A stretch of 64,000 bases of DNA. Origin: Candidatus Heimdallarchaeum endolithica (GTDB taxonomy: Archaea > Asgardarchaeota > Heimdallarchaeia > Heimdallarchaeales > Heimdallarchaeaceae). The position numbers and the translations under genes were made by a program. Position 1 is the first letter of the stretch, and every line of letters begins with the position of its first letter. Positions 5,212-51,260 of this stretch are shown in pieces. The DNA lies in contig CP084167.1 in assembly GCA_021513715.1 (NCBI GenBank), forward strand, positions 2,080,001 through 2,144,000, written 5' to 3'. Under the pieces are notes generated by a model. It saw nothing but the letters and a program-made list of their open reading frames with translations, ran no database searches and was not told the DNA's origin.

Positions 5212-5609
5212 CAAGCCTAAGAAAATAAATCAGTATAAACAGAATAACATTTTTTAACAAAATCATCAATAATTGTTCCTTCAACAGGAAATAGGTAGTG
5301 TTTAAATGACCACCTAATCCTTGAATTATTTTCATAAATAGCTTTTATCAATATTTTTTTGGGTATTTTGCTCCCTTTAAAAAAAGAGAAATAAAATTTT
5401 GATTATTATATTTTCACGCCACACCCCACCAATATTTTGTCGGAAGAAACTATGTACCACCAAAATTGGATTAAGGTAAGATTAGAATTTTAAACAAAGG
5501 TTAGAAAATTTAACAATTATAAAATAAACACGTATAATTTTATCTTATTGAAGTCAGTCAACTTTTTTTGGAAGTGTTAATAAAATAAAAAAGAATAAAG
5601 AGAAACAGT

Positions 5610-5770
5610 GTTAAACTTGGGCTAAGACAAGATTAAAATTATAAAGTGCTAAAAGTTCTACAAGATTAAAAGAAGTTAAAATTGGACTAAGATAGGATTG
5701 AAATGACTTAATTAAAGAAATAAGCTGGTGTTGAATAATAGTTAAAATTGGACTAAGATAGGATTGAAAT
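5610..5770 (+). CRISPR. Mini CRISPR array: degenerate repeat 5610..5639, repeats 5675..5704 and 5741..5770, spacers of 35 and 36 nt
   Basis: GTTAAAATTGGACTAAGATAGGATTGAAAT differs by one base from the main type I-B repeat; a further decayed copy lies at ~5459..5488. Confidence 0.85.
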
Positions 5771-7184: not shown

Positions 7185-7203
7185 ACTTGAGCTCTTGATC
7201 ACC
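7185..7203 (-). repeat. Degenerate tRNA-Pro 3' fragment marking the start of a ~1.6-kb duplicated unit
   Basis: ACTTGAGCTCTTGATCACC vs ACTTGAACTCCTGATCACC; the following ~180 bp are nearly identical to 10105..10287. Confidence 0.7.
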
Positions 7204-7386
7204 AGAACATTTATCCAGAAATAGATTATAAGAGATGAGTCTTGATTTAAAATCACTGTAACTATCTTTTTACAAGTTTGAAAACAGTTAAAACTAAAGA
7301 AAATTACTCTTTATTTAAAATCATCAAAACTAGTGTTTAACCCCTTTTTCGCAAAAATTTATTAATAAAAAAAATGTCTATTTTTT

Positions 7387-8766
7387 ATGCTTTTTACTTT
7401 TAAAAAAAGAAAAAATAATTCATTCATGCTTTTACTGTTCGTCTTTTCTTCTCTCATGCTCTTTTCTCCTGATTTTAATCTAGTCACTTCTTCTGCTTCA
7501 AGTTCAGGTACCTTTCCTCCTCCTGATGGTATTTGGAACATTACCGAACCTACAGTTGTTGAAAACGAGTTTATTAAACTTACCAACAGAGTTGATATCA
7601 AGGACGAAGGCTCTCTTATTCTTCGTAACTGTTTTATTGTTATTGAACATGATCGAGTAGGTTCTCTCGGTATTTATGCTATAGACAATTCTTCTTTAGC
7701 GATCTATGATACTACTATCCTAACTTACACTGACAGTCCTTGGTATATTGGTGTAGATAATAATGCCCATCTTCATCTTGAGGGTTCCACTCTTATTGGA
7801 GGGTCGGATAGAACTTATTCACGCGAATTGATACGATTATACAGTTCTGATAATATCGTTATTAACAATTTTATCACTCATACTCGGGGAGCAATAGATA
7901 TCCAATACGGTTCTCACAACTTGGTTAGTGGTAACAACATTTCTCATAATAGTGCAAGCAGTATTGATATGACTGAAAGTTGTTTTAACGTTATTACTAA
8001 TAACTACATATCGTATATTAGTTCATTGGCAATTCGTAGTTCAGGACATAATAACATCATAACAAATAATACTATTACTTATACCAGGTATGAAGGAATA
8101 AGCGTAAGTGGGGATAATAACACCGTTACTGATAACGTTATTTCCGAGAGCAGAAGAAATGGCTTGGGTGTAGGTGGATCTAACAATCACCTTTCTTCTA
8201 ATATGTTGTTCAATAATAGCAACTATGGTCTATATATTTACAAATCTGCTTCTAACAACTTTATCTCTCGTAATGTTTTTTTCAAGAACAATCAAGGTAA
8301 CAACCTTTCTCAAGCTTTTGATGATGGGGTAAATAACACTTGGTTTGACCCCGTCTATTCTATTGGCAATTATTGGTCAGATACCGATGGTTCTGAACCT
8401 TACCCTATCGATGGTGCGGCTAAAGCTTTTGACCCTTTTCCTCGTGGAAGCGATTTCGACGAAGATAACCTTCTGGATTATCTTGAAGATCATGTTTATG
8501 GTACTGACCCCTGGAATCCTGATTCGGATGGAGACCTTTTACCTGACGGTTGGGAAGTTCATTATGGTTCTGACCCTTTAACTCCTGATGCTTATCTTGA
8601 TTTTGACGGCGATGGTTTGACCAACCTTGAAGAATTTTATAACCATACCAATCCTTTAGTTAAAAATCAGATGATGCTCTTAGCGATAGTTCTCTCTCCC
8701 CTATCTTTTGTTTCACTTTTCTCGCTTAAAAATCTCCTCCGTTTTTTAAAAAATAGGAGAAAATAG
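7387..8766 (+). CDS. Cell-surface NosD/CASH parallel beta-helix protein with Ca-binding DxDGD repeats and C-terminal membrane anchor (copy 1)
   Basis: Signal peptide, N-rich beta-helix repeats, GNYWSD, DSDGDLLPDGWE, DGDGLTNLEE. Confidence 0.85.
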   Translation: MLFTFKKRKNNSFMLLLFVFSSLMLFSPDFNLVTSSASSSGTFPPPDGIWNITEPTVVENEFIKLTNRVDIKDEGSLILRNCFIVIEHDRVGSLGIYAIDNSSLAIYDTTILTYTDSPWYIGVDNNAHLHLEGSTLIGGSDRTYSRELIRLYSSDNIVINNFITHTRGAIDIQYGSHNLVSGNNISHNSASSIDMTESCFNVITNNYISYISSLAIRSSGHNNIITNNTITYTRYEGISVSGDNNTVTDNVISESRRNGLGVGGSNNHLSSNMLFNNSNYGLYIYKSASNNFISRNVFFKNNQGNNLSQAFDDGVNNTWFDPVYSIGNYWSDTDGSEPYPIDGAAKAFDPFPRGSDFDEDNLLDYLEDHVYGTDPWNPDSDGDLLPDGWEVHYGSDPLTPDAYLDFDGDGLTNLEEFYNHTNPLVKNQMMLLAIVLSPLSFVSLFSLKNLLRFLKNRRK

Positions 8767-9225
8767 TCTCTTTCTCTTATCTTCATCTTGTCTTTTTCTA
8801 TAGATTTTTATCTTATTTTTCTTCTTTGTTTCTTTCCTTTATTATGAGTTGAAATTTTCGTAATTTCTTCATGACTCTACCCAACCAGGCAACAAATCAG
8901 TGTTATCTGATTGTGAGGACTGGGTTAAGAGAATATAGATGGTTTTTCTACTCAATATTTACTATCCTGCTGTTTAGGTTACTTCCTCTTCATTCTGTAC
9001 TTTTTAGCTACTCTCTTTCTAAGTTTCCTAGGGTGTGGTTGTTTTTTATGTTTATTACTTATTTTTAGTAACTAGTCTTTTAGAGTATTATTAAGATAGT
9101 TCTAATTAGTCATAACACTTCTTAATAGATAAAATTTATAAATATTTATTGAGATTTTCGTTTTAATGTACAGTAAAAAAAAGGAAAAGGATTTTCATAA
9201 GCAATTAACACAAAAGAGGAGAAGT

Positions 9226-10065: not shown

Positions 10066-10104
10066 AAAATGGTGGCGGAGAGGAGACTTGAACTCCTGAT
10101 CACC
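10066..10104 (-). repeat. att-like duplication of the tRNA-Pro 3' end (39-bp direct repeat of 12461..12499)
   Basis: AAAATGGTGGCGGAGAGGAGACTTGAACTCCTGATCACC identical at both sites. Confidence 0.92.
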
Positions 10105-10287
10105 AGAACATTTATCCAGAAATAGATTATGAGAAAAGAGTCTTGATTTAAAATCACCATAACTATCTTTTTACAAGTTTGAAAACAGTTAAAACTAAAG
10201 AAAATTACTCTTTATTTAAAATCATCAAAACTAGTGTTTAACCCCTTTTTCGCAAAAATTTATTAATAAAAAAAATGTCTATTTTTT

Positions 10288-11673
10288 ATGCTTTTTACTT
10301 TTAAAAAAAGAAAAAATAATTCGTTCGTGCTTTTACTTGTGATTTTTTCTTCTCTCTTGCTCTTTTCACCTACTTTTAGTCCTATAGTTACTTCTTCTTC
10401 CTCTTCTGGAGTCTTTCCTCCTCCTGCAGAGGGTAGATGGAACATTACCGAACCTACGGTAGTGGAAAACGAGTTTATACACCTTACCAACGACATTTCT
10501 GTTAGGGGAGAAGGCTCTCTTATTCTTCGTAATTGTTTTATTGTTGTTGAACACGACGAAATAGGTTATATAGGGATTACTGCCACAGACAATTCTTCTT
10601 TAGAGATATACGATACAACCATTCTAACTTACACCGATAGCCCGTGGACTATTGTCATATATGAAAATGCTCATCTTCACCTTGAGGATTCCACTCTTAT
10701 TGGTGGGTGGAACAGGACTTATTCTCGCGATTTAATACGTTTATACAGTTCTAACAATGTTGTTATTAACAACTTTATCACTCATACCGAGGGGGCAATA
10801 GAGATCCAATACGGTTCTCACAACTTGGTTAGTGGTAATAACATTTCTTACACTAGATGGGCAAGTGGCATTGATATGACCGACACTTGTTTTAACGTTA
10901 TTACTAACAACCACTTGTTGTATAGTGGAACACATGGAATTTATGGTTCAGGACATAATAACATTATATCAAATAACACTATTATTTATACCAAGTATGA
11001 TGGGTTAGCACTAAGTGGGGATAATAACACCGTTACCGATAACGTTATTTCCGAGAGCAAAGAAAGTGGCTTGTCCGTAAGTGGTTCTAACAATCACCTT
11101 TCTTCTAATATTTTGTTTAATAACAGCAAGTATGGAATGTATATTTACAAATCTGCTTCTAACAACTTTCTCTCGCGTAACGTTTTTTTCAAGAACAATC
11201 CGACTAATAATCTTTCTCAAGCAATTGATGATGGGGCGAATAACACCTGGTTTGACCCCGTCTATTCTATTGGTAATTATTGGTCTGATACTGATGGATC
11301 TGAACCTTACCCTATCGATGGTGCGGCTAAAGCTTTTGACCCTTTTCCTCGTGGAAGCGATTTCGACGAAGATAATCTTCTGGATTATCTTGAAGATCAT
11401 GTTTATGGTACTGACCCCTGGAACCCTGATTCGGATGGAGATCTTTTACCTGACGGTTGGGAAGTTCATTATGGTTCTGACCCTTTAACTAATGACTCTT
11501 ATCTTGACCTTGATGGTGATGGTTTAACCAATCTTGAAGAATTTTATAACCATACCAATCCCTTAATCAAAAACCAAATAATGTACTTGATAATCGTTCT
11601 CACTCCTTTATCCTTCGTTTCTATTTTCTCAGTTAAAAATCTCCTCTTTCTTTTAAAAAATAGGAAAAAATAG
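10288..11673 (+). CDS. Cell-surface NosD/CASH beta-helix protein (copy 2)
   Basis: Close paralog of 7387..8766, with near-identical C-terminal portion and upstream region. Confidence 0.85.
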   Translation: MLFTFKKRKNNSFVLLLVIFSSLLLFSPTFSPIVTSSSSSGVFPPPAEGRWNITEPTVVENEFIHLTNDISVRGEGSLILRNCFIVVEHDEIGYIGITATDNSSLEIYDTTILTYTDSPWTIVIYENAHLHLEDSTLIGGWNRTYSRDLIRLYSSNNVVINNFITHTEGAIEIQYGSHNLVSGNNISYTRWASGIDMTDTCFNVITNNHLLYSGTHGIYGSGHNNIISNNTIIYTKYDGLALSGDNNTVTDNVISESKESGLSVSGSNNHLSSNILFNNSKYGMYIYKSASNNFLSRNVFFKNNPTNNLSQAIDDGANNTWFDPVYSIGNYWSDTDGSEPYPIDGAAKAFDPFPRGSDFDEDNLLDYLEDHVYGTDPWNPDSDGDLLPDGWEVHYGSDPLTNDSYLDLDGDGLTNLEEFYNHTNPLIKNQIMYLIIVLTPLSFVSIFSVKNLLFLLKNRKK

Positions 11674-11832
11674 TAAATTTCCTTATTTCCAATTCTTTTG
11701 TTTTTTTTCCTTTTCGTTTTGTTTTGTTTATTTTTTGCTAGTTCAAATGAAAATAATAGTGATAATGATAATGATAGTGATAGTTTTAGAGATAGTGATA
11801 GACTTTATTTTTCTTTTCTTTTAAATTTGATA

Positions 11833-12429
11833 TTATAATTCTTTACTGTAGTTTAGCAGTGTTTGGTACATGTTTTTTTCCTTTTCTTTTTCTATGTATA
11901 TTCTCCTTTCTTTTACATTTTCTTTTATATAATCTAGTGATAATTCTACTACTCTTACTTTGTTTATTTTTTCTTTCTTTAGTTGTTCTTTCATTTTTCT
12001 TTCCAATATTTGTCTTTCTTTCTCTGTTTCTACTGGTACTTTGTTTATTATCACATCAATTGGATCGATGAATGTACTCTCTGGAAATTTTTTTATTTGT
12101 TCTATTTCTTCAGTTAGATCTTCCAAAGGGGGAATACAGACACAAACTAATTTATCTGATAGCAGTAAAACACTCATTATTTCGGTGTTCGTTATACTTG
12201 GAGAGTCTATCAACACTATTTCATATTTCTTCCGCAGATAAGCTAGTAAATTTCTTATAAAGTTTGCAAAATCTTTATGATGATAGTCTCTATCTTTGTT
12301 AATTAGATCTTCTATTGTTGCTGGAGCAGTAGGGATAATGAAATCTACTCCATAATCGTTTGTAATTATACTTTTCTTAATTATTGTATCAACCGTTTCT
12401 AGTTCAAGGTTGTTTCTATAGTTCTGCAT
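11833..12429 (-). pseudogene. MinD/ParA-family ATPase, N-terminally truncated
   Basis: KYEIVLIDSP (Walker B), SDKLV, VIINKVP present; no deviant Walker A; the frame begins ~35 bp from the tRNA-Pro 3' end. Confidence 0.65.
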
Positions 12430-12464
12430 ATGAACTTAGAAAAAAACGTTAAAATCACATAAAA

Positions 12465-23916: not shown

Positions 23917-24111
23917 TTTCATTTTTCTTATTTCAAATTAACACTTTTTCAACCTTGTTTCTTTTCGTGAATCACACGTGCTTGCCAATAAAATTTTTCA
24001 TTTTTCTTATTTCAAATTAACACTTTTTCAACCTTGTTTCTTTTCGTGAATCACACGTGCTTGCCAATAAAATTTTTCATTTTTCTTATTTCAAATTAAT
24101 ACTTTTTCAAC
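23917..24111. repeat. 79-bp tandem repeat, ~2.5 copies
   Basis: Unit recurs at 23917, 23996 and 24075. Confidence 0.92.
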
Positions 24112-24238
24112 TTTTAAATGTTGTATGAAATCGGTTTTTACCTAATATATTTCTTTAGTAATTTAAAAAAGATAATTAACGAATCAGCATATCTAGCGTT
24201 TTACTTTGTTTTTTTTTTAAATTAATTTTAACCTATCC

Positions 24239-25132: not shown

Positions 25133-25180
25133 ATTTGCACAATTACTTTACTCAATTTAAGTATTTTTTTCAGTATATTT

Positions 25181-28100
25181 ATTTCAATCCTATATTAGTC
25201 CAATTTTAACCTGCAAAGCTTTTGATATAACTTCAAAGTAGCTAGAATTTCAATCCTAAATTAGTCCAATTTTAACACCAACTGGTTCAAAGTACTATTT
25301 CAGCAAAGCTATATTTCAATCCTATATTAGTCCAATTTTAACATTTTCTCCTTGAAGGGTAGGGGGCTAGTCTTCCATATTTCAATCCTATATTAGTCCA
25401 ATTTTAACACCAACTGGTTCAAAGTACTATTTCAGCAAAGCTATATTTCAATCCTATATTAGTCCAATTTTAACCCAATTTTTACATTCATCTATAGCAT
25501 GATTACAAAAATTTCAATCCTATATTAGTCCAATTTTAACGTTTATTCAGAAACAGATAATAGAACAGTTGAGGTCGAATTTCAATCCTATATTAGTCCA
25601 ATTTTAACGATTGTGAGTGTTTGTTCATAAAGCGTAGAATTAACATATTTCAATCCTATATTAGTCCAATTTTAACTTCTGTTTCAGCATAGTCTTGATA
25701 ATTGGGATAGGAATTTCAATCCTATATTAGTCCAATTTTAACTTTGATTGCTGATTTTACTTTAGAAGTTAAGAATTTTAAGGATTTCAATCCTATATTA
25801 GTCCAATTTTAACTATTGAATGAAATCTTATCTGAATACTCTTCTAATAATTTCAATCCTATATTAGTCCAATTTTAACTTGTTGTTACTTCTTCAACAG
25901 TACATTCAATATTTGTATTTCAATCCTATATTAGTCCAATTTTAACGTTCTCTGCACCCCCGAGTATGAATTTCCCGACTGCATTTCAATCCTATATTAG
26001 TCCAATTTTAACTTGTTGTTACTTCTTCAACAGTACATTCAATATTTGTATTTCAATCCTATATTAGTCCAATTTTAACGTTCAAGTATGAAATTCAGAC
26101 CGAAACCATTTGAAAAATTTCAATCCTATATTAGTCCAATTTTAACAGTCAAACAATAAAGAAGCGTGAGAGTCATATTTTACATTTCAATCCTATATTA
26201 GTCCAATTTTAACGCATTGTTTATTAGGACAGTCAAGTACTTCAAAATAATTTCAATCCTATATTAGTCCAATTTTAACACTTAAAGTTAATGGAGAGTT
26301 TGAGGTAAAGGCTAAATTTCAATCCTATATTAGTCCAATTTCAACACTACCAGCGAAAGGATCAAGAACAATATCATCTTCTATTTCAATCCTATATTAG
26401 TCCAATTTTAACGAGATAAATCAGCATCTTCAGTCATATCATAAGTAATATATTTCAATCCTATATTAGTCCAATTTTAACTTCATCTAAAATTATCAGG
26501 AGTGTCTTCAACAACATATTTCAATCCTATATTAGTCCAATTTTAACCAATACTCAAATCTCAGAAATGAGTGATATGATCGTATTTCAATCCTATATTA
26601 GTCCAATTTTAACTCTGACTGGCCGAATTGGTATGACTTCTGATAGTGAATTTCAATCCTATATTAGTCCAATTTTAACCCAATTTTTACATTCATCTAT
26701 AGCATGATTACAAAAATTTCAATCCTATATTAGTCCAATTTTAACCCAATTTTTACATTCATCTATAGCATGATTACAAAAATTTCAATCCTATATTAGT
26801 CCAATTTTAACCTCTTGTTTCTGGTTTCTCTATTCTAACAGGTAAAATATTTCAATCCTATATTAGTCCAATTTTAACCACTTCAAGAGTTTTACTATTA
26901 CTTTGAATGATAAAATTTCAATCCTATATTAGTCCAATTTTAACTACACAAAAAAGAATAGTAATATATAAAAGAAGAAAATTTCAATCCTATATTAGTC
27001 CAATTTTAACGAATAAGCCTCCTACTTTATAATAACGCTTCTTCTTAAAAGTATTTCAATCCTATATTAGTCCAATTTTAACTATTCTGTTTTAGCAATA
27101 GCTATTTTTTCAAAAGCTATTTCAATCCTATATTAGTCCAATTTTAACGAATACTCAGAAGGCAATTAATCAACCTGACTAAACATTTCAATCCTATATT
27201 AGTCCAATTTTAACAGTTCCTACTTCATAGATCGTTTTTCTCTTGTCCAAATTTCAATCCTATATTAGTCCAATTTTAACTAATCATTACCTGATGTATA
27301 AGAAGATGAAAATCCAATTTCAATCCTATATTAGTCCAATTTTAACCTATCTCCTTCACATGATATTTCAACTGTCTTCTTAATTTCAATCCTATATTAG
27401 TCCAATTTTAACTAAGTAAGAAAGGATCTTATCACCGATAGTACGAAAATTTCAATCCTATATTAGTCCAATTTTAACAAGAACTTTTCTAATTTTTTCT
27501 TTTTTAAAAATAATATTTCAATCCTATATTAGTCCAATTTTAACTTATTATATTCTCACCCTTATTAAATGCTAGAATATATTTCAATCCTATATTAGTC
27601 CAATTTTAACATTTGAGCCTATAAAAGCAAGTAATGGGCCAATCACATTTCAATCCTATATTAGTCCAATTTTAACTAAATGAACCAGATAAAAGTAATG
27701 TCACAAATTATGATTTCAATCCTATATTAGTCCAATTTTAACAATAGAGTCTTCTTATTCAACAAATACAGATGAGAAATTTCAATCCTATATTAGTCCA
27801 ATTTTAACTTCCATAATAAGATCAATAACATCATTATGAAGAAAATTTCAATCCTATATTAGTCCAATTTTAACACATTGCTATTGTCCCGACAATAACA
27901 TCATCATATTTATTTCAATCCTATATTAGTCCAATTTTAACTAGCAACTTGTTTAGCTTTTTGAGAAATTACTGCAATTTCAATCCTATATTAGTCCAAT
28001 TTTAACCCGCCCCAGCAACTAGTGCCAGTAAAATAACAGTTGATTTCAATCCTATATTAGTCCAATTTTAACAGGGTTTTGTTTAAACAGTTGTTCATCG

Positions 28101-28270
28101 GCTCCATGATTTCAATCCTATATTAGTCCAATTTTAACAATACTGAAAACTTTATTCTCCATGCACTTAAACAGATTTCAATCCTATATTAGTCCAATTT
28201 TAACCGTCATACTGAAAAGTGATCTTCTTGTTGCTAACAGATTTCAATCCTATATTAGTCCAATTTTAAC
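25181..28270 (-). CRISPR. Type I-B CRISPR array, 47 repeats / 46 spacers (35-42 nt)
   Basis: 30-bp repeat ATTTCAATCCTATATTAGTCCAATTTTAAC on +; ATTGAAAT 3' end and leader beside cas2 imply minus-strand transcription. Confidence 0.98.
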
Positions 28271-28382
28271 ACTTGTTATATTCTTCTACCACTTCATTTT
28301 TCTCTTATCTTCTAAAGATGTTTGTCTGGGATCATATATAGTGTTATTCCTTTATAAATATCCCAGATTTTTTTATAATAAG
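28271..28382 (-). promoter_or_regulatory. CRISPR leader with TATA-like TTTATAAA
   Basis: AT-rich, lies between cas2 and the first repeat; homologous to 38063..38150. Confidence 0.8.
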
Positions 28383-28646
28383 TTATATGAATTGCCCTGT
28401 TTCTACTTTTTCAATCCCTAAGTTAGACAACTTAACTAGTTCTTTACTTCGTATAGTATAAATTCTCACACAATCATGTTCTTCATTCATTAGACGTTTT
28501 AGGCCATTTTCTATTTCTACTAGTTGTGTTTTCGTTATTTCTCCTTCAAAAACTGAATTTTGAACTCTTTCTAAGAAGCATCTCAGAAAGTTACATACTT
28601 TTGACACTCTTTCTACTCCCACGTCATAAACTATTATGGCATACAT
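28383..28646 (-). CDS. cas2: CRISPR-associated Cas2
   Basis: IIVYDV, RVQNSVFEGEIT. Confidence 0.97.
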   Translation of the reverse strand: MYAIIVYDVGVERVSKVCNFLRCFLERVQNSVFEGEITKTQLVEIENGLKRLMNEEHDCVRIYTIRSKELVKLSNLGIEKVETGQFI

Positions 28647-28647
28647 T

Positions 28648-29727
28648 TTACCACCAAATTACGAAGGGTTCATATTTTTTCATCCCCAATAAATGTTTGC
28701 ACAATTTTATGCATTCCAAATAAATCAATCTCTCATAAGAAACATTTCTTTTAAGGGAGCGATGTTTTATTGTAGAATTTAATTTTTTCTCATATTCCAT
28801 CACAAAAATTTTTTTACCTTTTTCATTCAACAAGCAGCTATTTAACTCTTTTACAAAATGCTTTTCTGTTATTATCTGTTTGTTAGTTAATTTAAATATG
28901 ACCCGATCTACTATTAATGGTTTAAATATTTCTGAGAGGTCTAAAGATAGTGAATATCTTCTTTCTGATGGTTCATGTAAAAAAGCGATTGTTTGATTCA
29001 ATTGTGTGTGGTAAATATTTTTTATTATTGTTGAATAAAGAAGGGCGTTTCCAAAACTTATCATAGCATTAATAGGATTCAGGGGAGGTTGTTTTGTTCT
29101 TTTCTCAAATTTAAAAGTATTTTTTATAATAACATCAAAGCAGGCATAATATTTATTCCGTATACCACCTTCAAGAGCTCTTAATTTGTTAATATCAATT
29201 ATATTTGTGATTTTTTTTATCTCATTTTCAATATATTCTATCTTACTTTCAAAGTCTCTTCCCTCGCTTTGGTAATATTTTAGATTTCTCAACATATTTA
29301 GAGATGCTCCTTCAATAAATTTTCTTGCTAGAAGAATTCTCTTTCTGTAATCTAAGTAGTGTGCAGCTTGGTTTATATGCATTTTTCCAGACAGTAAACT
29401 TTCTTTTGGAATAATGGAACCCTCATAATTACCATAATATCCAAAGAAATGGACGGGGATTGATTTTTTGCATAGCAAGGAGATAACTCCTGAAGTAAGA
29501 GATACTCTACCATATAAAAACAGATTTCCTATTTGCTCAATTGGTAAGATCCTTTTTTCATATTCAAGTTTATTGGCAATATTTTCTGTTTCAACGTCAA
29601 ATTCCTCTTCATCAATCTCGGCCTTAAATACTTTATTATTTTCTTCTTGTTTTTGATAAATGAAATAAATGGTATTATATTTTCTAATTAATTTACCATT
29701 TTTTAAAATATAGAAATTTTTATTCAC
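28648..29727 (-). CDS. cas1: CRISPR-associated Cas1 (type I-B)
   Basis: HFFGYYG, NAMISFGNALLY, FLHEP...SLSLDLSEIFKP. Confidence 0.97.
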   Translation of the reverse strand: MNKNFYILKNGKLIRKYNTIYFIYQKQEENNKVFKAEIDEEEFDVETENIANKLEYEKRILPIEQIGNLFLYGRVSLTSGVISLLCKKSIPVHFFGYYGNYEGSIIPKESLLSGKMHINQAAHYLDYRKRILLARKFIEGASLNMLRNLKYYQSEGRDFESKIEYIENEIKKITNIIDINKLRALEGGIRNKYYACFDVIIKNTFKFEKRTKQPPLNPINAMISFGNALLYSTIIKNIYHTQLNQTIAFLHEPSERRYSLSLDLSEIFKPLIVDRVIFKLTNKQIITEKHFVKELNSCLLNEKGKKIFVMEYEKKLNSTIKHRSLKRNVSYERLIYLECIKLCKHLLGMKKYEPFVIWW

Positions 29728-29730
29728 TTT

Positions 29731-30243
29731 TCACACCCAACAAAACTCAAAATATGCACATTTTCTACAATAACTTTTTTTTTCAGGTTTTGGAGGACTA
29801 GGCATTGCAAGTATTTCTTTTATTTCAGCTAATATGTTTTCTAACTTTTTTTCTATTTCAGCATTTAAAGTTAAATTGATTCTTTTTTTAACAAGAGGAT
29901 AGTCAATAATTCCTTCTACGAGTTCAATTTTTTTGGTCCGTTTAAGATAATATATATAATAATAAAGTTGATATTTATGCGCGTCCTCAAGACTTTGTGA
30001 TTTTTTAATTTCATGCAAAATCAATTTTTCTCCTTTTTTCAAAAAATCAATAGCTATTTTGTTATCAACGATAATGTTTTTTTTCATTCTAGGATAAGTT
30101 ACTTCATGAATAAAACTACCTAGTCTTACTTCTTCAGAGGATTGTTCCATTCCCATGTTATAGGAAAATAACCACAGCTTTGTTTTGCATACTATGGAGT
30201 AATTGATTTGTAACCCCCTAAAAAAGTCGAACTCGTTCAGCAT
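29731..30243 (-). CDS. cas4: CRISPR-associated Cas4
   Basis: CKTKLWLF, HEIKKS, QLYYY, CRKCAYFEFC. Confidence 0.96.
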   Translation of the reverse strand: MLNEFDFFRGLQINYSIVCKTKLWLFSYNMGMEQSSEEVRLGSFIHEVTYPRMKKNIIVDNKIAIDFLKKGEKLILHEIKKSQSLEDAHKYQLYYYIYYLKRTKKIELVEGIIDYPLVKKRINLTLNAEIEKKLENILAEIKEILAMPSPPKPEKKSYCRKCAYFEFCWV

Positions 30244-30306
30244 AATAATTTCATTTTACTAAAATATTAAAGCATTTTTAAAAATTTTAAAATTGGCTTT
30301 TGTTTT

Positions 30307-33000
30307 TTAAATTATGTTTTCTTCTTCAATTTCAAGCTTATCCATATTCAAATTTTCTAGCTTGTTAATTCCTAGTTCTTTTATTTTTTTTAATGAACTA
30401 TGGGGTAGTTGCTTAAGAACATAGAAGCCTTTAAACATTTCTCGTTCCAAAAAAACGTATGTTTTAAAATTTTTACCAAAAGCGTAAATAGGGACATGAA
30501 AGGAATAGGAATATAATTTTTTTAAGATAGTCCACTTGCTCGTTTCTATCTGTGTTTTCTTTTTAATTATTTTTGCAATGCTATTGGTACTTTCATTTTT
30601 GCTTTCAAATGGGAGAACCCAATTATCTTTGTTTGTTCTATCAGCAATTAGTGCACCTAATGCTTTTTCGATTTCATCATCACCAAATTCTTTCATTACG
30701 TCAGGTATCAGTACTTGAATTCCTGCCATGCGCCTAAAAACGGTTTGCGCTTGACTTTTCTTCTCCGCGGAGAAATATTTTAACCATTCAAGTGTCTCCT
30801 CTATTTTTTCTTCATAATATTCTCTAAGCGTTCTACCATTAATCTTCGCTTTAAAGACTTGCTCTATTATTTCTCTTTCATTTTCATAATTTAGTATCCC
30901 CTTTTTCTCATATTTTTCTAATACTTCAATCGTTTTATTTAGCATTATCTCTGGTTGGTAAATAGCTTTGGTTCCTTTGTCTATTCCAGTATAGATGTAC
31001 ACATTCGGAGTTGATTCTTTGTAGTCACTTTCTCTGTTCCTATAAATACGCCCCCATCTTTGAATTTGTGAGTCTACAGGAGATATTTCAGTAATTAATA
31101 TATCAAAGTCCACATCAACAGATGCTTCTACCATTTGTGTAGAAATAAGTATTAAATGCTTCCGATTTTTTAAATTATTCTTTATTTTTGATATTCTCTT
31201 ACTCTTTTCTTTTTCAATTATTCTAGAATGCAAAAGTTCTGCATATATTTTATGATTTTTAAACGTTTCATATAAACTAATAGCTTTTCCTACATTATTA
31301 ACAATAATAAGGACATTTTTATCAGGATTAGTTGTCAGTATCTTATTTAACTTTCGGAAAGAATCTTTTGAAACAAAGTAGGATGGGTTATTGTCTTTAG
31401 AATCGTAATTAAAGAGCAAATCATCGATTAATTGAATCTTATGTCTTCTGAGGGAAAAGTTCTTTATTGATTTTTTATCAGAGATATCTTCTTTAAGATC
31501 AATGAGTGTAAAATCTAGATTTATTTCTTGTGTATTTCCTTTGTTTTTAAACAAAAACTTTCGAAAGTATGGAGGAAATGTTGCTGTGATAATAAGTATT
31601 TTACCACTTAATTTATTTATTATCTCTAATGTTTTTATAATTATTGCAGCCATCTCTGGATTATAAGCTTGAATTTCGTCAATAATTACTGTACTGGTTG
31701 GATAAAGAGAAAGAACTTTATCGAAACCATAATATTTCAACGATGTTAGAAAGATCTGATCAGGTGTTGTTAACAAAACAGGGGTAGAAAAAAGTTTAGC
31801 AGAAAGCATTTTGCAATTTATATCTATCTTCTTTCCTTCTTTTTCTTCATCCAAATATTCCATAAATGATGTAGAATGGAGGATACCCAAGTATTTTTCA
31901 TCAAAATAGTTAATTTCTGCTTTTTTTCCATTTTTTGCTATTTTAAACTCTTGAAATCGAGTAAATAAATCATTTAATGCAACACGTAAAGGGAGTGTAT
32001 AAATTACCTTTCGTCCTGACTTTTTGGCCCATAATAAAGCAAATTCTGTTTTACCAGACCCTGTAGGAGCAACTAAGACTATGTTTTTTTTAGAATGGTC
32101 TATTTTTGCAATGATCTCTTTTTGCCATATTTTTTCTTTGTTTGTTATTAATTTAATGGCTTTTGATATTTCCACCTCTAACTGCTGGAAAACGGTTTCT
32201 ATACTTGATATCTCTTCCACGTTTATCTGACCACTGGCCCCATAATCACATCGTCTTAAACACCCTAGAAAAACAAAAAAGGAGTAATCGGGCTTTTCAT
32301 TGTCAATTTCATATAATTTTAATTCTGTTGTTAAACCATACCCTTTCTTGATTTTTTGCAACAATTTCGTCAATCTTATAAATCCTGGTTCTATCTCGTT
32401 TAGTAAAGCATTACTTATGTGTTCACCTAACAATTCTTTTTGTTTTTCTATAAGTGCAATTAACAGCGATTTGATTTGATTGTTGTTTTTAATAATAAAT
32501 TCTATGAATTTCTCTATTTCTGGATAATTATCAATTATATAACGTATATTCTTTTCTTGTTTAACATAAAAATCATTGTAGTGATGAAGTAAAATGGCTG
32601 TTCGAATTTTTTGATTTCTTTCATCATTATTTAAAAAAATAAGAGAAAAAATCACAGAAAGAATTTCATGATCCTTTACTTTTTGATCAGTTAGTTCTTT
32701 AAAGAATTTCTTGACACTTAGCCATTCTTTTTCTTTTTTTTCTGCGTATTTAAAGACCAATCCTTGAAAATAGGGATTGATTTTGCCAAGATCATGAATA
32801 AAAGCAGCTTTTACTAAATCTTCGAGGAAAAAATCACTTTTTATTTCTTTGAAATCTATTACATTTTCATTTGCTTTGATAAACTCATGTAATTTTTTTA
32901 CTTGATATATAATATCTTGTGTGTGTTCCCATAAAAGATATCTTTTTTGATCTTTTGATTTTGCTCTTAAAACTTCTATTAATTCCAATTTTATAACCAC
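30307..33000 (-). CDS. cas3: Cas3 HD nuclease-helicase
   Basis: IHDLGK, APTGSGKTE, IDEIQ, QRWGRIYR. Confidence 0.97.
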   Translation of the reverse strand: MVIKLELIEVLRAKSKDQKRYLLWEHTQDIIYQVKKLHEFIKANENVIDFKEIKSDFFLEDLVKAAFIHDLGKINPYFQGLVFKYAEKKEKEWLSVKKFFKELTDQKVKDHEILSVIFSLIFLNNDERNQKIRTAILLHHYNDFYVKQEKNIRYIIDNYPEIEKFIEFIIKNNNQIKSLLIALIEKQKELLGEHISNALLNEIEPGFIRLTKLLQKIKKGYGLTTELKLYEIDNEKPDYSFFVFLGCLRRCDYGASGQINVEEISSIETVFQQLEVEISKAIKLITNKEKIWQKEIIAKIDHSKKNIVLVAPTGSGKTEFALLWAKKSGRKVIYTLPLRVALNDLFTRFQEFKIAKNGKKAEINYFDEKYLGILHSTSFMEYLDEEKEGKKIDINCKMLSAKLFSTPVLLTTPDQIFLTSLKYYGFDKVLSLYPTSTVIIDEIQAYNPEMAAIIIKTLEIINKLSGKILIITATFPPYFRKFLFKNKGNTQEINLDFTLIDLKEDISDKKSIKNFSLRRHKIQLIDDLLFNYDSKDNNPSYFVSKDSFRKLNKILTTNPDKNVLIIVNNVGKAISLYETFKNHKIYAELLHSRIIEKEKSKRISKIKNNLKNRKHLILISTQMVEASVDVDFDILITEISPVDSQIQRWGRIYRNRESDYKESTPNVYIYTGIDKGTKAIYQPEIMLNKTIEVLEKYEKKGILNYENEREIIEQVFKAKINGRTLREYYEEKIEETLEWLKYFSAEKKSQAQTVFRRMAGIQVLIPDVMKEFGDDEIEKALGALIADRTNKDNWVLPFESKNESTNSIAKIIKKKTQIETSKWTILKKLYSYSFHVPIYAFGKNFKTYVFLEREMFKGFYVLKQLPHSSLKKIKELGINKLENLNMDKLEIEEENII

Positions 33001-33854
33001 CCAAAGTCATTTACTATTGGAAAAGTTTCTAATTTTTTATCCAAATTAATGTCACAAAATTCTACCTCTATAGGACTTTGTAAAATAAGACTATGATCAG
33101 GACTGATGTATATAACTTCTTTAAACTCTGCACGCCTGTAAGTTTCCTTAGTTATTTGCTTTTTAGATTCAACTGGTTGTCCATTATTTTCAAAAATTAC
33201 CTTAGTTGGTACAAAAAATACAGGAAATTTCAGATTTTTGATAGGAAAATTTGTTCTAGTTATAAAAGTAGGATAATGTAATTTAATATCACCTTCAATT
33301 ATCTCTTTTTCAACAGATTCAACAAAATTAACAGATCTGATGTAAGCAATATCTTCTCCCCGGCCTAGACTTAATACCTTTTTTGTTTTTTCCAGTGATT
33401 CAGCAATTTCCTTTATCAGCATAAGTTGCTCTCTTTTTCCTTTTTTTCCTGCTTTTATAAAAATAAATAGATGACCATTAAATAGTTCTTGTACATAGAT
33501 TGGTGTTCTTTGAGCTGTTTGACCATATCCATAAAGAGGTATAGGTTTGTTCTTACTTGCTTGCTTGTTTACTAGCATATTCCGTTCCTTATCAATATAC
33601 ACTTCACCTCTGATGCTATGCTGATAATTCCAAAAAGAGCTCTCAAAACCGCCAAAAATTGCAATTTTTAACTCCCACCAAGTTTCAATTCCTTGAATAT
33701 GCCCGTACCAATCATTACAAGCATTTTGTAACATACCAATAATCGCTGACTTAGGGGGTAAGGGAAAGCTTTGCGCATAATAAAAAGTAAAGGGATTTCT
33801 ATAGAGCGCAAAGGGTTGAAATATTTCAATGAATAATATTGCTTCTTCTGTCAT
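32991..33854 (-). CDS. cas5: Cas5
   Basis: FALYRNP...SFPLPPKSAIIGML, LSLGRGED. Confidence 0.93.
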   Translation of the reverse strand: MTEEAILFIEIFQPFALYRNPFTFYYAQSFPLPPKSAIIGMLQNACNDWYGHIQGIETWWELKIAIFGGFESSFWNYQHSIRGEVYIDKERNMLVNKQASKNKPIPLYGYGQTAQRTPIYVQELFNGHLFIFIKAGKKGKREQLMLIKEIAESLEKTKKVLSLGRGEDIAYIRSVNFVESVEKEIIEGDIKLHYPTFITRTNFPIKNLKFPVFFVPTKVIFENNGQPVESKKQITKETYRRAEFKEVIYISPDHSLILQSPIEVEFCDINLDKKLETFPIVNDFGWL

Positions 33855-33892
33855 ATAATCCCTTTTTTTATTTTTAAAGCAAAATGAGGATG

Positions 33893-34924
33893 CTAATTCC
33901 TATTTTTTGCTTCATGTTCTTCAGCAACAAATTCAGGTTCTACTTCTACTGAACTTCTTTTGTATCCATATAATTGAGAAATATTTTGTGGTACAGTTGT
34001 GTCATCTTCTAAAAATTCCTCTACTTTGTTCAATATATCGTCAAATTGTGCGTTAATAATCTGTTTATTACGATCAATATCAACAATAAATTTTGGAGCT
34101 TCTTTCTCAATAATTTGATGTTCAATCTCATTCATAATAGTACCATCCTCTTTTTCGATTTTTCTTTCATTTGTAATTACTTTATATACATTTGATTTAC
34201 TTATTTCAATCTTATCCATATAAGTTTCATACCTTGCATCGTTATAAAGCCCCACAATCATCAGCCAGGGTGAAAGATTTTCCATGCGCCCTTTAATTTC
34301 CCTTTTAAGTGTAAATATTGTTTCTAATAATTGTTTAATTCTTTCATTTTTTTCTTGTTCATCAATCCTGAATTGATCTCCATCTTCGTCTAAGATTCCT
34401 ATTCTATTTACATCTATAACTAAATTATATACATAGAAATCCTTTTTTTCTTCGGAAGTGAAAGGATTACTACCTTCGCCTCCAGCTCGTTTCATAACGT
34501 CTAGATTTGCCAAAAATTGTGTATCAAAGTTGAATGGTGTCATAGAAATAGCATGTGAAATTTTAACAGGAGATACACGAGTAGTTGCACCTTCAGAACT
34601 ACCTTTTTTGGCAATCATAAAACCAAATAAATCAAATTCTGGGAAGCCTAGGATTTCTGAATCCTTAAGTAGTTGATTATTAGGACAAACTACACCTCCT
34701 TTAGTATTAGTTAATTGATCTGGTCCGGCTAATTTCCACTTATTTGGAAAAAGCTTGTTTCCATGGTGTAAGATACTGTACCGAAGAGCATAACGGCTAA
34801 CCAATACATATTGGCGACCATCCCATTTTGTTATTTTTTTTAGTTCTTGATAATTTCCTGAGCCTTGGTCATAATTCAAGGAATTACCATAGAATACTAT
34901 ATCTACTACAATATATTTACTCAT
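33893..34924 (-). CDS. cas7: Cas7 (Cst2/DevR, type I-B)
   Basis: SLNYDQG.GNYQELKK, VSRYALRY, EFDLFGFM, RVSPVKISHAIS. Confidence 0.93.
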   Translation of the reverse strand: MSKYIVVDIVFYGNSLNYDQGSGNYQELKKITKWDGRQYVLVSRYALRYSILHHGNKLFPNKWKLAGPDQLTNTKGGVVCPNNQLLKDSEILGFPEFDLFGFMIAKKGSSEGATTRVSPVKISHAISMTPFNFDTQFLANLDVMKRAGGEGSNPFTSEEKKDFYVYNLVIDVNRIGILDEDGDQFRIDEQEKNERIKQLLETIFTLKREIKGRMENLSPWLMIVGLYNDARYETYMDKIEISKSNVYKVITNERKIEKEDGTIMNEIEHQIIEKEAPKFIVDIDRNKQIINAQFDDILNKVEEFLEDDTTVPQNISQLYGYKRSSVEVEPEFVAEEHEAKNRN

Positions 34925-35207
34925 CTTTTTCTTTCTCCTTTAAATTTTTACTGTTTGTGTTATATGTATTCATTATTCCGATGATTATTGAATAAGCGTA
35001 ATTGGGAAAAACCTCTTTTGGCATTAAATCATAAGTTGAATTTAGTTGTTCAATCAGTTTACTAAGTTCTTTTTTTGGCTGGTTAATTGCTTTTAAAAGA
35101 ACATAAAAGAATCGTGTTTGGTCATTTGCCTTCACAGTATCCAGAAGAGTGTAAACTAATTTTTGCTTATAGTTGTCTGAAACATCCGTAAAAGATTTTT
35201 CAGTCAT
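34917..35207 (-). CDS. cas11: Stand-alone small subunit (Cas11-like)
   Basis: 96-aa helical protein between cas8 and cas7 resembling the Cas8b C-terminal domain. Confidence 0.7.
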   Translation of the reverse strand: MTEKSFTDVSDNYKQKLVYTLLDTVKANDQTRFFYVLLKAINQPKKELSKLIEQLNSTYDLMPKEVFPNYAYSIIIGIMNTYNTNSKNLKEKEKDE

Positions 35208-35299
35208 TGTTCTTAACTTACGTAATTCAATTTTTGTTTTTTTATTACCATAAACTTTTTGCCAGTAAATTTTTTTAACCTCCTTCTCACTATTTTTTA

Positions 35300-36937
35300 T
35301 TATTTAATTAATTGTAATATAATAATCAAAGCATATTCTTGCCAAGAGTGCTCATTCAGCACTACTTTGTCAAATAGCCATTTGTTTATTTTTTTCAACA
35401 ATTTTTTTGAATCTTTTTTGTTACATTCGTTTAATTTTTTTAGCAAATAATTTAAAAAGTAGATTTTTTGCTTTTTCAGTAAGATATGGATTAAATCCGT
35501 AGAAAGTTTCAATTTCTCATCTTTTGGGATCAAAGAAAGTATCAAACTAGAATAATAAGAAGAATTTCTGATTTCTTCGTTTATGTCTCTTACCAAGAAA
35601 TTATAATCGCTAAAAAAATCTTTTGAGAATAAACGTTTTTCATTTTTTAATTCACGAATTATTGCTTCGATTATTAAAGAATAAAGAGATGAACTAAATC
35701 GAAAAATTTTATTTGAAGAATCAGTGATGCACAAGAGACAATGTTGTAAAATTAGCGGATAAAGAGGTCTTCCACTAATAAATTCTCTTAAAAGCCATTT
35801 TTGTTTGTATTTTTTCTTGATTTTTTGATACTTTAAATAAATATTGATGTTTGATCTTATTTTATTATCTAACAATATACTTGCATGAAGCTTTGAAATT
35901 CCAATATAGTTTACGGATTGTATGTTTTGCTGATTGTCGACGCCGTCATGTTCTATGACATACATATTTTCTAATGAAAAAATACTTTTTTGTTCAAACA
36001 TGTAATCTAAAATACTGTTCCATGTCACTTTAAGAACGTCCTTATTACGATCCTTTTTTTCCAGTCTATTTAGCGATAGCCGAATACTTTTGTTAATATG
36101 GTAACTACTGTGTAGGTTGTTTGTATAAAATAATATAAATTTAGGTTCAAAAAAACTGGTAAAGGCAATAGGAAAACAAAGTAAATAAATAATCACAGAT
36201 TGTTCAAACAGTTCATTAAAATCATCTAGCGTTTGTATTTTACAATATAGAATATTCAAAGCTTCGCTTTCTGCAAACATAAACTTTGAAATAGTTTTAT
36301 CTAAAGCATTAGGGGTATCACTACCTTTAATTTTAGTTCTATAAAGCATATCTTCAAAGGCGAGAAAGACATCACTTTCTTTCCCTTTTTTGTTCTTTGA
36401 AGGGTTACAGAAAGGTAAATTTAAAAAAAATGGTTCTGTAAAGATTATACCAACATTTTCTATTTTTTTCAATACATTAGGACTTGTTTTAGAGCCAAAA
36501 GAATTTTTAAGATCACATTCAAATTCAGAAAAACTTTCTTTGATTTCGTCTTTAAAGTGATTATTAATATCAATAATAGCTTGTCGAACTTCATTTGGCG
36601 ATTGAAAAGAAGAGGGGACATTTTTATAACTTAACAATTCCTTTTGTAAATTCCTTTTCATCTCTTCAAAATGTTTCTTTTTTGTTTTACTTTTACTAGC
36701 TAAATCTTGCTTATTTATCCATTTTATTGCGGTTTCCTTAATATAATATAAAAAATAAGCATAATAGAATTTCTCTTTATAAAGTGGTTGACTAATTATT
36801 TTGTCAAAGCTTTCACCATAAACATCTTCAATTAAAAAGATATATCCTAAGATCCCTGCGTCTATATACCAATTACCAGTAAAAGATATTTGTTCAGTAG
36901 AATTATTTTTCTTTTCATCATGAATGATAACTGTCAT
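35300..36937 (-). CDS. cas8: Cas8 large subunit (Cst1/Cas8b1-like)
   Basis: FTGNWYIDAGILG N-terminal motif; position in the operon. Confidence 0.85.
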   Translation of the reverse strand: MTVIIHDEKKNNSTEQISFTGNWYIDAGILGYIFLIEDVYGESFDKIISQPLYKEKFYYAYFLYYIKETAIKWINKQDLASKSKTKKKHFEEMKRNLQKELLSYKNVPSSFQSPNEVRQAIIDINNHFKDEIKESFSEFECDLKNSFGSKTSPNVLKKIENVGIIFTEPFFLNLPFCNPSKNKKGKESDVFLAFEDMLYRTKIKGSDTPNALDKTISKFMFAESEALNILYCKIQTLDDFNELFEQSVIIYLLCFPIAFTSFFEPKFILFYTNNLHSSYHINKSIRLSLNRLEKKDRNKDVLKVTWNSILDYMFEQKSIFSLENMYVIEHDGVDNQQNIQSVNYIGISKLHASILLDNKIRSNINIYLKYQKIKKKYKQKWLLREFISGRPLYPLILQHCLLCITDSSNKIFRFSSSLYSLIIEAIIRELKNEKRLFSKDFFSDYNFLVRDINEEIRNSSYYSSLILSLIPKDEKLKLSTDLIHILLKKQKIYFLNYLLKKLNECNKKDSKKLLKKINKWLFDKVVLNEHSWQEYALIIILQLIK

Positions 36938-37124
36938 TAGACAACCAAAAATAAATAAAGAGATAATTATTTAAACTTACCTTATTTAAAATAAAGGTAG
37001 GGTCTAGTTTTCCTTCCTGTTGTACGTAAAAAAGAGGTAATTAGGCGGAGACTCTTAATTATTTATTTTGTAGAAAATTAAAGCCCACTTTAAAATGCAA
37101 TTATACCGATTTATTAAATTTAAA

Positions 37125-37862
37125 CTATTTTTTTAAATTAACAAAACCAAAACCCATAGTATTTCGTTCTCCAAAACCCGTATCAAGGCCAAATTTGATT
37201 AATTTATATTGAAAATCATCTACATAGCTCCACTCAAATTCCCACATAGTTGCAGCAAATTTATGTCCTTCACCATGTATGAATAGTTTATTATAAACAG
37301 TTTTTTTATAAGAAAATTGCTCAAAAATATCAATATTTTGGATATAGGTTTTATAAAAATGATTATATTTTTTAATAAGATTTTCTGAGAGTTGTTTAAG
37401 AAAAGCGTGAAAAGGGTAGTGTGGTCTCCAATAAACATATCTCCTTTTTCTTTCTTTTTCGGGAATTTGATACTCGTCATATTTCTGTTCAGGTATTCGT
37501 ATTATTATGGGGGTTGATGAAACAATGTGGATATTTCGTCTTGGTAGAACAATGTCAATAGGCTGAACATCAGTAATTCTAAATTGCATCTCACCAATGT
37601 TGATTACATCTTCGTGTTTCTTTTTCAACATTAGCTGCTCGTATAGAGAATTAATTATTTTCTTCAGAGGTGAAGAAATAATTAAATACTTTTGAGAATC
37701 ACCAAAAATATTAGAAAAACAAAAAAATTTGTAGTCATCCTTTTTATCATGTAAGGAAGAAAAGTCTTTCTTGAGTAGAGAATAAATAAAACCACTAAGT
37801 TTGTTATAAGCATAATCAATATATTGCTTTTTTACATCGTCCATTTTAATAAGTAATCTCAT
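37125..37862 (-). CDS. cas6: Cas6 endoribonuclease
   Basis: YKFFCFSNIF, C-terminal GFGERNTMGFG glycine loop. Confidence 0.96.
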   Translation of the reverse strand: MRLLIKMDDVKKQYIDYAYNKLSGFIYSLLKKDFSSLHDKKDDYKFFCFSNIFGDSQKYLIISSPLKKIINSLYEQLMLKKKHEDVINIGEMQFRITDVQPIDIVLPRRNIHIVSSTPIIIRIPEQKYDEYQIPEKERKRRYVYWRPHYPFHAFLKQLSENLIKKYNHFYKTYIQNIDIFEQFSYKKTVYNKLFIHGEGHKFAATMWEFEWSYVDDFQYKLIKFGLDTGFGERNTMGFGFVNLKK

Positions 37863-37903
37863 CCAAGATTACCTGAATAGTTATAACTATAAATATTTAT
37901 ATC

Positions 37904-38062
37904 AATTCAACCTATAAATCAAATTTAAACTACTCGTCACAAGTCTCTTCTTACTCATCTTTTCTAACTTCAATCCTATATTAGTCCAATTTAAATGATA
38001 GCAGAGTAATTATGTGGCGGTCTGCAAAACCGATTTCAATCCTATATTAGTCCAATTTTAAC
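37904..38062 (-). CRISPR. Mini array upstream of cas6: perfect repeat 38033..38062, 3-mismatch repeat 37967..37996, decayed repeat ~37904..37930; 36-nt spacers 37997..38032 and 37931..37966
   Basis: Same repeat as the main array, regular 36-nt spacing, own leader. Confidence 0.9.
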
Positions 38063-38150
38063 CTTATTTTATTCTTCAGTCTACATTTTTCACTTATCTT
38101 CTTAATTTGTTTCCTTGGGATCGTACATAGTGTTATTCCTTTATAAACAT
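38063..38150 (-). promoter_or_regulatory. Second CRISPR leader copy
   Basis: Shares CATTTTTC.CTTATCTTCT, TGGGATC and ATAGTGTTATTCCTTTATAAA blocks with 28271..28360 at similar distance from the repeat. Confidence 0.85.
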
Positions 38151-38221
38151 CATTGATATTCGTAGATTAAACATTAATATTAGATAATTTAATCTATAAT
38201 ATTCAGATTAAGAAACGTTTT

Positions 38222-38297
38222 TGGAGCAGGGCAAGGGATTTGCACCCCTGTAAAATGGTTTTGCAGACCATCGCATCAACTACTCTGCCAGCCCTGC
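38222..38297 (-). tRNA. tRNA-Cys(GCA), CCA encoded
   Basis: GCAGGGC/GCCCTGC stem, ATGGT-CTGCAAA-ACCAT, U73 discriminator; atypical T-loop TGCAAAT. Confidence 0.92.
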
Positions 38298-38519
38298 TTT
38301 CTTCTTTTTCCATGGAGTTTTAATTTACGATAATTCTTTTTTTTTGTACCTAAAAAAGCTTTTCTATTGTTATCTTCTTCTTTTAAAGCTTCAAACTTTA
38401 TTTTTTAGTTTACTATTTTTTCTCAAAATATTGTTCTTAAAAAAAATAAATAATTAAAAAGAGAATAAAGAAAAGAAAAGAAAAAATTTTCTTCAGAAGA
38501 CTTTGGTCTTTATTTTGCT

Positions 38520-50913: not shown

Positions 50914-50990
50914 AGTTGCTCAAGGAGTAGCAATAAAAAATAAAATAGAAATACAAATATCATTGTCAAAATATCAAGGTATTACAAAAA

Positions 50991-51260
50991 AAGAGAAGAG
51001 AAGAGAAGAGAAGAGAAGAGAAGAGAAGAGAAGAGAAGAGAAGAGAAGAGAAGAGAAGAGAAGAGAAGAGAAGAGAAGAGAAGAGAAGAGAAGAGAAGAG
51101 AAGAGAAGAGAAGAGAAGAGAAGAGAAGAGAAGAGAAGAGAAGAGAAGAGAAGAGAAGAGAAGAGAAGAGAAGAGAAGAGAAGAGAAGAGAAGAGAAGAG
51201 AAGAGAAGAGAAGAGAAGAGAAGAGAAGAGAAGAGAAGAGAAGAGAAGAGAAGAGAAGAG
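50991..51260. repeat. Perfect pentanucleotide satellite (AAGAG)54
   Basis: 270 bp without a mismatch. Confidence 0.97.

Follow-up and report, generated by a model that had tools for sequence, protein, structure and literature searches.

The genome of Candidatus Heimdallarchaeum endolithica PR6 (G000) is a single contig of 3.33 Mb with 30.8% G+C. We analysed a 64,000-nucleotide stretch of it (the window; coordinates refer to it unless another sequence is named). At 25171–38217 the window carries a CRISPR island that takes the place of some 130 bp at the empty site (G001:2018264–2018397) of the sister species Ca. H. aukensis PM71 (G001; 3.08 Mb; PMC8813620). All nine island ORFs are cas genes or occupy cas positions, and no integrase or Tn7 gene was found inside 25171–38217. 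On the minus strand lie cas6 (37125–37862; TIGR01877); a 545-aa ORF without a family match (35300–36937), which gene order suggests is cas8b; a 96-aa ORF that may encode a small subunit (34917–35207); cas7 of the Cst2/DevR family and cas5b (32991–34924); a full-length cas3 of 897 aa (30307–33000), assigned by HD and helicase family matches rather than by its catalytic residues; cas4, cas1b and cas2 (28383–30243); and the main leader (28292–28381) with the main array of 47 repeats (together 25181–28381), whose last repeat lies at the far edge of the island. The gene set cas6-cas8b-cas7-cas5-cas3-cas4-cas1-cas2 is that of type I-B, with Cst2/DevR, Cas1b and Cas3 assigned by family, Cas5b by a match below the cut-off and cas8b by position only. 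Within 25181–26800, several spacers of the main array occur two or three times (23/24/42, 34/36 and 43/45). Wu et al. 2022 (PMC8813620) place arrays C3 and C4 beside tRNA genes, and we take these to be the island at 25171–38217 and mini-array B, described below.

Between cas6 and a tRNA-Cys gene lies a second, much smaller array, which we call mini-array A. A reading of this DNA from its letters alone (the sequence-only reading) had described a separate mini-array with its own leader upstream of cas6, and direct reading bore this out: the leader occupies 38063–38170 on the minus strand and shares 79% identity with the main leader across 38081–38170. Repeat 1 (38033–38062) is identical to the main-array repeat and supplies the 5′ handle of the crRNA of the first spacer, A1 (36 nt, 37997–38032). 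Repeat 2 (37967–37996) has three changes, one of them in the handle of the next spacer. To these features we add a second 36-nt spacer, A2 (37931–37966), and a degenerate, gapped remnant of a third repeat (about 37904–37930), read from the sequence; all lie on the minus strand. No target was found for A2, or for spacer B1 of mini-array B, in the organism's own genome or in the fetched loci, and A2 is probably inactive or regulatory. The closest Cas6 relatives (57–60%) are Thermoplasmatota-like and lie in other contexts without such a mini-array.

The tRNA-Cys(GCA) gene at 38222–38297 (minus strand) is the single copy in the genome. It scores and folds as a normal tRNA (Rfam, 55.2 bits; stem pairs intact), and we refer to it as allele R. 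Direct reading confirmed that A1 matches this adjacent gene over 38256–38292 at 29/36 positions, with seven mismatches and one gap, and that the match includes 13 contiguous nucleotides at crRNA positions 2–14; crRNA position 1 is mismatched. A match of this quality within 1 kb would be expected by chance with a probability of about 1e-7. Because the A1 crRNA would run along the minus strand, A1 is antisense to the tRNA, as had been claimed. The corresponding protospacer position is 38253–38292 on the plus strand, where the flank is AAA (38253–38255).

Searching relatives with the region revealed a better match to A1 than the genome's own gene. The tRNA-Cys of H. aukensis, which we call allele S, matches A1 at 33/36 positions without a gap; crRNA positions 1–17 are perfect, the mismatches are at positions 18, 24 and 35, and the flank is CCA where R has AAA. 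About 6e-11 such matches are expected by chance per genome. Among 36 tRNA-Cys collected from Asgard genomes and viruses, the next-best match to A1 was 30/36. At this locus S has the same sequence, letter for letter, in H. aukensis, in a third strain, L133, whose site is empty, and in strain contig L050, and is thus ancestral. The suggestion that A1 derives from a real but different tRNA-Cys is thereby given a concrete source in the sister lineage. R differs from S at 15 positions, all stems being kept through compensatory pairs, and no donor of R above about 81% was found among 400 Asgard genomes. Positions 18 and 24 of a crRNA are unpaired in Cascade; two of the three A1–S mismatches fall there, a pattern that is suggestive only (p ~0.07–0.17), and a clean A1 seed has a chance probability of ~0.1–0.17. 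One of the mismatches removes a D-loop G that is present in 33/33 of the cellular tRNA-Cys collected, and A1 carries one further C-to-T change in each of L069 and L078. For these reasons the three mismatches are most simply read as drift in the spacer.

Flanks of other spacers agree with the earlier view that AAA is not a PAM, and support a CCW PAM independently of A1. The protospacer of spacer B2 is flanked by CCA, as are those of two spacers of the other I-B system. Deriving a PAM from main-array protospacers, a check that had been proposed, gave CCT: spacer 61 of the L140 main array, which belongs to the same island in another strain, matches a giant aloposon gene perfectly. Since the aloposon gene matched by the L140 trailer is present in both genomes, this match supports the PAM and not site-specific targeting. 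On the 5′ side, as for type I-B, the flanks are therefore CCA for A1 and B2 and CCT for L140 spacer 61; CCW occurs by chance at 1.7% per site. The I-B system of Clostridioides difficile reportedly also uses CCW. Main spacer 25 (26614–26649) has a 35/36 self-match at G000:C1:3794–3829 with a CAT flank, which is not a PAM, and this match is apparently tolerated. Taking target, seed and PAM together, we consider it highly probable that A1 is a full-length type I-B guide for DNA aimed at the ancestral tRNA-Cys allele of its own site.

Haplotype contigs were recovered through Cas6 and the neighbouring ribosomal protein, and four haplotypes were distinguished. R together with intact A1 occurs in G000 and in L069, L140 and L141, and intact A1 was seen only with R; L136 and L139 also carry R, on contigs that stop at the first repeat. 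G001 and L133 combine S with an empty site, and L050 has an unmutated S with the leader, the array being lost beyond the contig end. The L069/L140/L141 islands have a wholly different main array, and mini-array A has been kept although 0 spacers are shared with the G000 main array and cas8/7/5/3 are 88–93% identical, differing by 8–12%. Against window positions 30307–36937, cas6, cas4 and cas1 of L140 and L141 are 99% identical while cas8, cas7, cas5 and cas3 are at 88–93%; judging from these identities, the effector block cas8/cas7/cas5/cas3 has been exchanged between island variants. Nothing indicated that A1 is conserved beyond its surroundings, as the target-less A2 and the decayed repeats have likewise been retained. 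All four combinations of the tRNA allele with a three-change marker 17–25 nt upstream occur among these few haplotypes, which suggests recombination of the tRNA allele at the 5′ boundary of the gene.

L078 and L079 carry S beside the island and A1. In these contigs the tRNA has a single change, and it lies at the PAM (CCA to CAA); the probability that one random tRNA change would strike the two C's of the PAM is 0.03. L078 differs from L050 by 0.0–0.1% over 2.4 kb upstream, so that the PAM change is recent. In the same contigs A1 lacks positions 3–17. This 15-nt deletion is also found in L080, giving three assemblies; it removes a hairpin, and the site could be mutation-prone. In L078 an L050-type leader gives way at the first repeat to sequence of the G000 type, and the A1 remnant shares the three old mismatches with G000 and L069. 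The haplotype is best read as a recombinant in which A1 came to lie beside S and which survived because both were disabled. As such it provides the strongest evidence that A1 would act on DNA through its PAM and would be harmful beside S. Because the escape changes are a PAM change and a seed deletion, they argue for targeting of DNA rather than for antisense RNA.

A1 looks like a usable guide rather than a dead one. Its element-free target is present in the empty-site strains G001 and L133 at 33/36 with a CCA PAM, the target is a single tRNA-Cys gene, and the allele linked to the guide lacks both the PAM and position 1. The resident chromosome would be spared because its sole tRNA-Cys has been replaced by a functional R without the PAM and first seed base. 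In our model, A1 was captured from S when R and the island displaced it, or from an incoming copy of S, and would be harmless beside R. Cas6 would still process the A1 crRNA, and Cascade–Cas3 would destroy S or empty-site copies that meet the island in one cell, whether by DNA uptake, by cell contact or among several copies of the chromosome. With tRNA-Cys essential and present only once, the haplotype to survive would be R plus island. The unit would thus exclude the rival allele, resist loss by recombination with an empty site and perhaps spread by being copied into chromosomes that have been cut. Any drive must be incomplete, since both S and empty sites are still present in the same vent field. 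To our knowledge neither mating nor polyploidy has been described in Heimdallarchaeum. Haloferax offers a precedent for the outcome, as I-B targeting during mating biases recombination towards the cutter (PMC12814878). On balance we lean towards a continuing allele-exclusion role for the unit of A1, R and island. We put forward only tentatively the stronger proposal of a natural CRISPR cleave-and-rescue or homing element, in which a transposase-free I-B island, itself bearing an immune allele, would spread and hold its site by cleaving the ancestral form of an essential tRNA gene, L078 would be a drive-resistance haplotype, and site-directed first spacers would be a habit of the CRISPR islands of this genus.

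The same haplotypes could be the relic of one accident, in which a young island took spacers from DNA by its own site and A1 has since persisted unselected. Survivors would then have escaped by replacing the tRNA allele, by mutating PAM and spacer or, near tRNA-Leu, by recombination between spacer and protospacer that deleted the target, and A1 would persist since units are seldom lost from an array of two repeats whose leader is idle. Mini-array B (5459–5770, plus strand), which lacks cas genes, bears on this reading. It lies between tRNA-Leu and a partial copy of tRNA-Leu, in place of a 672-aa gene without a Pfam match in H. aukensis (G001:C1:2068832–2070763). Spacer B2 (5705–5740, plus strand) matches this displaced gene at 33/36 with a CCA PAM. 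The junction between the last repeat of the mini-array and host DNA coincides exactly with the point at which CCA precedes identical letters in H. aukensis; it suggests that a further spacer recombined with its own protospacer, and it resembles an escape scar. The decayed repeats of mini-array B are on its 5′ side, the reverse of the normal polarity.

Other observations also fit a relic. In the array at C1:3195708, the two oldest spacers match, with CCA PAMs, an efflux island that H. aukensis carries next to the same locus. This is the published HeimM1 case: Wu et al. 2022 (PMC8813620) report a "territorial dispute" of H. endolithica C1 spacers with HeimM1. A2 and the decayed repeats have been preserved no less faithfully than A1, tRNA alleles are often swapped within the genus (see below), and chromosomal self-targeting is known to remodel genomes (PMC3630108). 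However, the three shared A1 mismatches lie outside the seed, implying that A1 aged beside an immune allele with its seed kept, whereas escape from self-targeting favours seed changes. Moreover, the changes in L078 imply that even as a relic an A1 that is intact and expressed would cut any S DNA that entered. A relic with lucky survivors would account for most of the observations, and we regard it as a plausible but less likely explanation of the persistence of A1.

Targeting of a spacer's own site was compared between array classes by scoring 40 candidates per query across the whole H. aukensis genome; the method recovered the HeimM1 matches as a positive control. Two of four mini-array spacers matched H. 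aukensis, both at their own site, and none of 46 main-array spacers did (Fisher p 0.005). Two spacers of a 37-nt-repeat array also match H. aukensis, and these are spacers shared with arrays of that genome; we rejected them as own-site targeting and attribute them to an ordinary common invader. Elsewhere, the arrays at G000:C1:1049592–1058465 and at G001 938342–961583 belong to different CRISPR types, which have been swapped at one locus between the two species; two of their spacers are nearly shared. Next to the C1 cas operon, G000:C1:3207145–3207823 holds two convergent small paralogous ORFs, and an orthologue of one of them lies at the other end of the array in H. aukensis (2954878–2955168).

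Exchange of whole tRNA alleles seems common in Heimdallarchaeum. When G000 and G001 orthologues were compared, about 11 of 38 tRNAs differed by 8–35 letters and 26 by 0–3. The swapped tRNAs include Met, Ile, His, Gly-TCC, Val, Ser and Cys, several of them in unbroken synteny without CRISPR, and it follows that R was probably not made by the action of A1. Median identity between the species is 95% over about 100 kb around the locus and 86–90% in four other stretches, a comparison that covers only about 370 kb. The zone at G001:C1:1985000–2090000 has a median of 95% with tiles at 99–100%, against a genome average of 88%; recent exchange between the species possibly explains it, although it may reflect conserved genes instead.

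Whole-tRNA swaps also suggest mobile tRNA copies, and Heimdallarchaeal elements are known to integrate at tRNA genes (PMC8813620). A1 might accordingly have come from a virus or integrative element that carried an S-like tRNA-Cys or used tRNA-Cys as its attachment site, the match to the sister species being a by-product; the three mismatches to S remain, and viral sampling for this host is thin. This was the first option of the sequence-only reading, and it found no support here. Viral scans with A1, the R allele, A2 and B2 returned no match, nor did a scan of the genome collection with A1. Three viral tRNA-Cys share only the anticodon arm, and the best of them reaches 30/36 with an AAG or AGA flank and no CCW PAM. 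The missing D-loop G fits drift in a spacer better than a working tRNA, and a viral source would leave the own-site match of B2 unexplained. We therefore think a viral origin unlikely.

A regulatory or addiction RNA, the second option, would have A1 or A2 bind through Cascade without cutting, or A1 act as an antisense RNA on tRNA-Cys, in the manner of CreTA or crlRNAs. In I-B systems it is common for a mini-array to lie upstream of cas6 and to have a decayed distal repeat (about 17% in archaea; bioRxiv 10.1101/2023.03.03.530964); mini-array A has this position and such a repeat. On paper A1 also pairs with the R tRNA, at −46 kcal/mol compared with −61 for S (unstructured). A linked toxin was not found: an Rfam search of 36900–38500 gave only the tRNA, a search that small RNA toxins could escape. 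No CCW-flanked seed match to A1 was found in the island, including the promoters of cas or toxin genes of the locus, and the best local matches of A2, of 7–8 nt, are at chance level. Furthermore, the resident site has an AAA flank and a mismatch at position 1, A1 is of full length and has a leader, unlike typical crlRNAs, and an effect at the RNA level would not select a PAM change. The natural escapes, a PAM change and a seed deletion, thus speak against this option as well, and we consider regulation very unlikely.

The last option, a relic homing guide, is nearest in spirit to the targeting of S that we favour, as A1 is a guide in a unit of its own, directed at the tRNA gene beside which its element is inserted; its route, however, would be Cas3 cutting and host recombination without transposition, and the guide looks usable rather than relic. 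A true CRISPR-associated transposon is most improbable, even though V-K and I-F3 CASTs place separate guide units to tRNA genes by their insertions (bioRxiv 10.1101/2021.02.06.429022), since the island has a full-length cas3 and adaptation genes, tnsA, tnsB, tnsC and tniQ are absent from it, as are terminal repeats or an att duplication of tRNA-Cys, and the resident allele has been replaced, an alteration of the target gene that CAST insertion does not cause. The expectation that tRNA-targeting mini-arrays would recur at other loci was not borne out, as none lay within 1.5 kb of 30 Asgard cas6 loci. A search with one tRNA motif, in one orientation and in part of the collection, yielded about 18 real repeat-flanked spacers from tRNA T-arms among the matches listed; within the 8 kb displayed, none of them belonged to a mini-array next to a tRNA gene. 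A lookalike on a Micrarchaeota contig (L156:2870–3110) was rejected because it consists of tandem 47-bp repeats from a tRNA 3′ end.

The A1–tRNA-Cys case is a form of CRISPR site competition. The territorial dispute between C1 and HeimM1 (Wu et al. 2022, PMC8813620) involves the same genomes and likewise spacers that match DNA at the same locus in the sister species, but it concerns different spacers, and HeimM1 is a dispensable, deletable island, whereas the target of A1 is an essential single-copy tRNA gene with an immune allele linked to the guide. The passages of that paper that bear on this do not mention A1 or B2, which fall below its 95% cut-off; spacer searches at 95% identity will miss guides such as these. 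In Haloferax mating (Choudhary et al., PMC12814878) a type I-B guide also strikes a relative's chromosome, with a Cas3-dependent bias to the cutter, and Sures et al. (PMC12612501) describe spacers from foreign prokaryote genomes. The targets in those studies are engineered or arbitrary and unlinked; in the case of A1 the guide, the target site and the immune allele lie within 300 bp.

Synthetic Cleave and Rescue (ClvR; PMC6442612), homing endonucleases and inteins resemble the A1 island in linking a nuclease against an essential gene to a recoded copy and cutting the element-free allele. The island differs in being natural and prokaryotic, in relying on Cascade–Cas3 rather than on Cas9 or a protein-guided nuclease, and in having its rescue copy in place; drive by it is a proposal. 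Mini-array A shares its position upstream of cas6, its decayed distal repeat and its fixed spacer content with crlRNA and CreTA mini-arrays (bioRxiv 10.1101/2023.03.03.530964), but it has a leader and near-full complementarity outside its own genome, and neither a promoter target nor a toxin was found for it. The tRNA-homing guides of CASTs (truncated units in V-K, atypical guides in I-F3) are, like A1, separate guides to a tRNA gene by the element; A1 differs in the lack of a transposase, the presence of Cas3, a full-length spacer and an own allele that it does not match. Small arrays borne by mobile elements (PMC6858448; Cas12r of Thermus Lalka phages, bioRxiv 10.64898/2026.04.20.719267) serve in competition for the same host or tRNA attachment sites; their guides strike rival elements, not a host tRNA gene. 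If continuing allele exclusion by A1 is correct, it would explain how defence islands without a recombinase take and hold sites, by aiming at the allele they displaced. Engineered cleave-and-rescue drives would also gain a parallel in nature, one for which the target, the PAM, the immune allele and an escape haplotype are all in hand. Exchange of chromosomal DNA between Heimdallarchaeum lineages, close relatives of eukaryotes, would be indirectly indicated.

Several further features were noted. Both tRNA-Lys orthologues (G000:C1:2516104–2517424 and 2352157–2352247) look broken or rearranged relative to H. aukensis; ARAGORN did not call intact tRNA-Lys genes, and a partial tRNA-Asn copy marks an aloposon end. 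Three tandem 79-bp copies lie just downstream of tRNA-Gly(GCC) (23917–24153) and are absent in H. aukensis. A gene at 7185–8833 and 10086–12431 is duplicated in tandem, together with a host segment, with a period of about 2.9 kb; H. aukensis has one copy of it, at a different place. Finally, a long perfect array of a 5-letter purine unit occupies 50987–51260.
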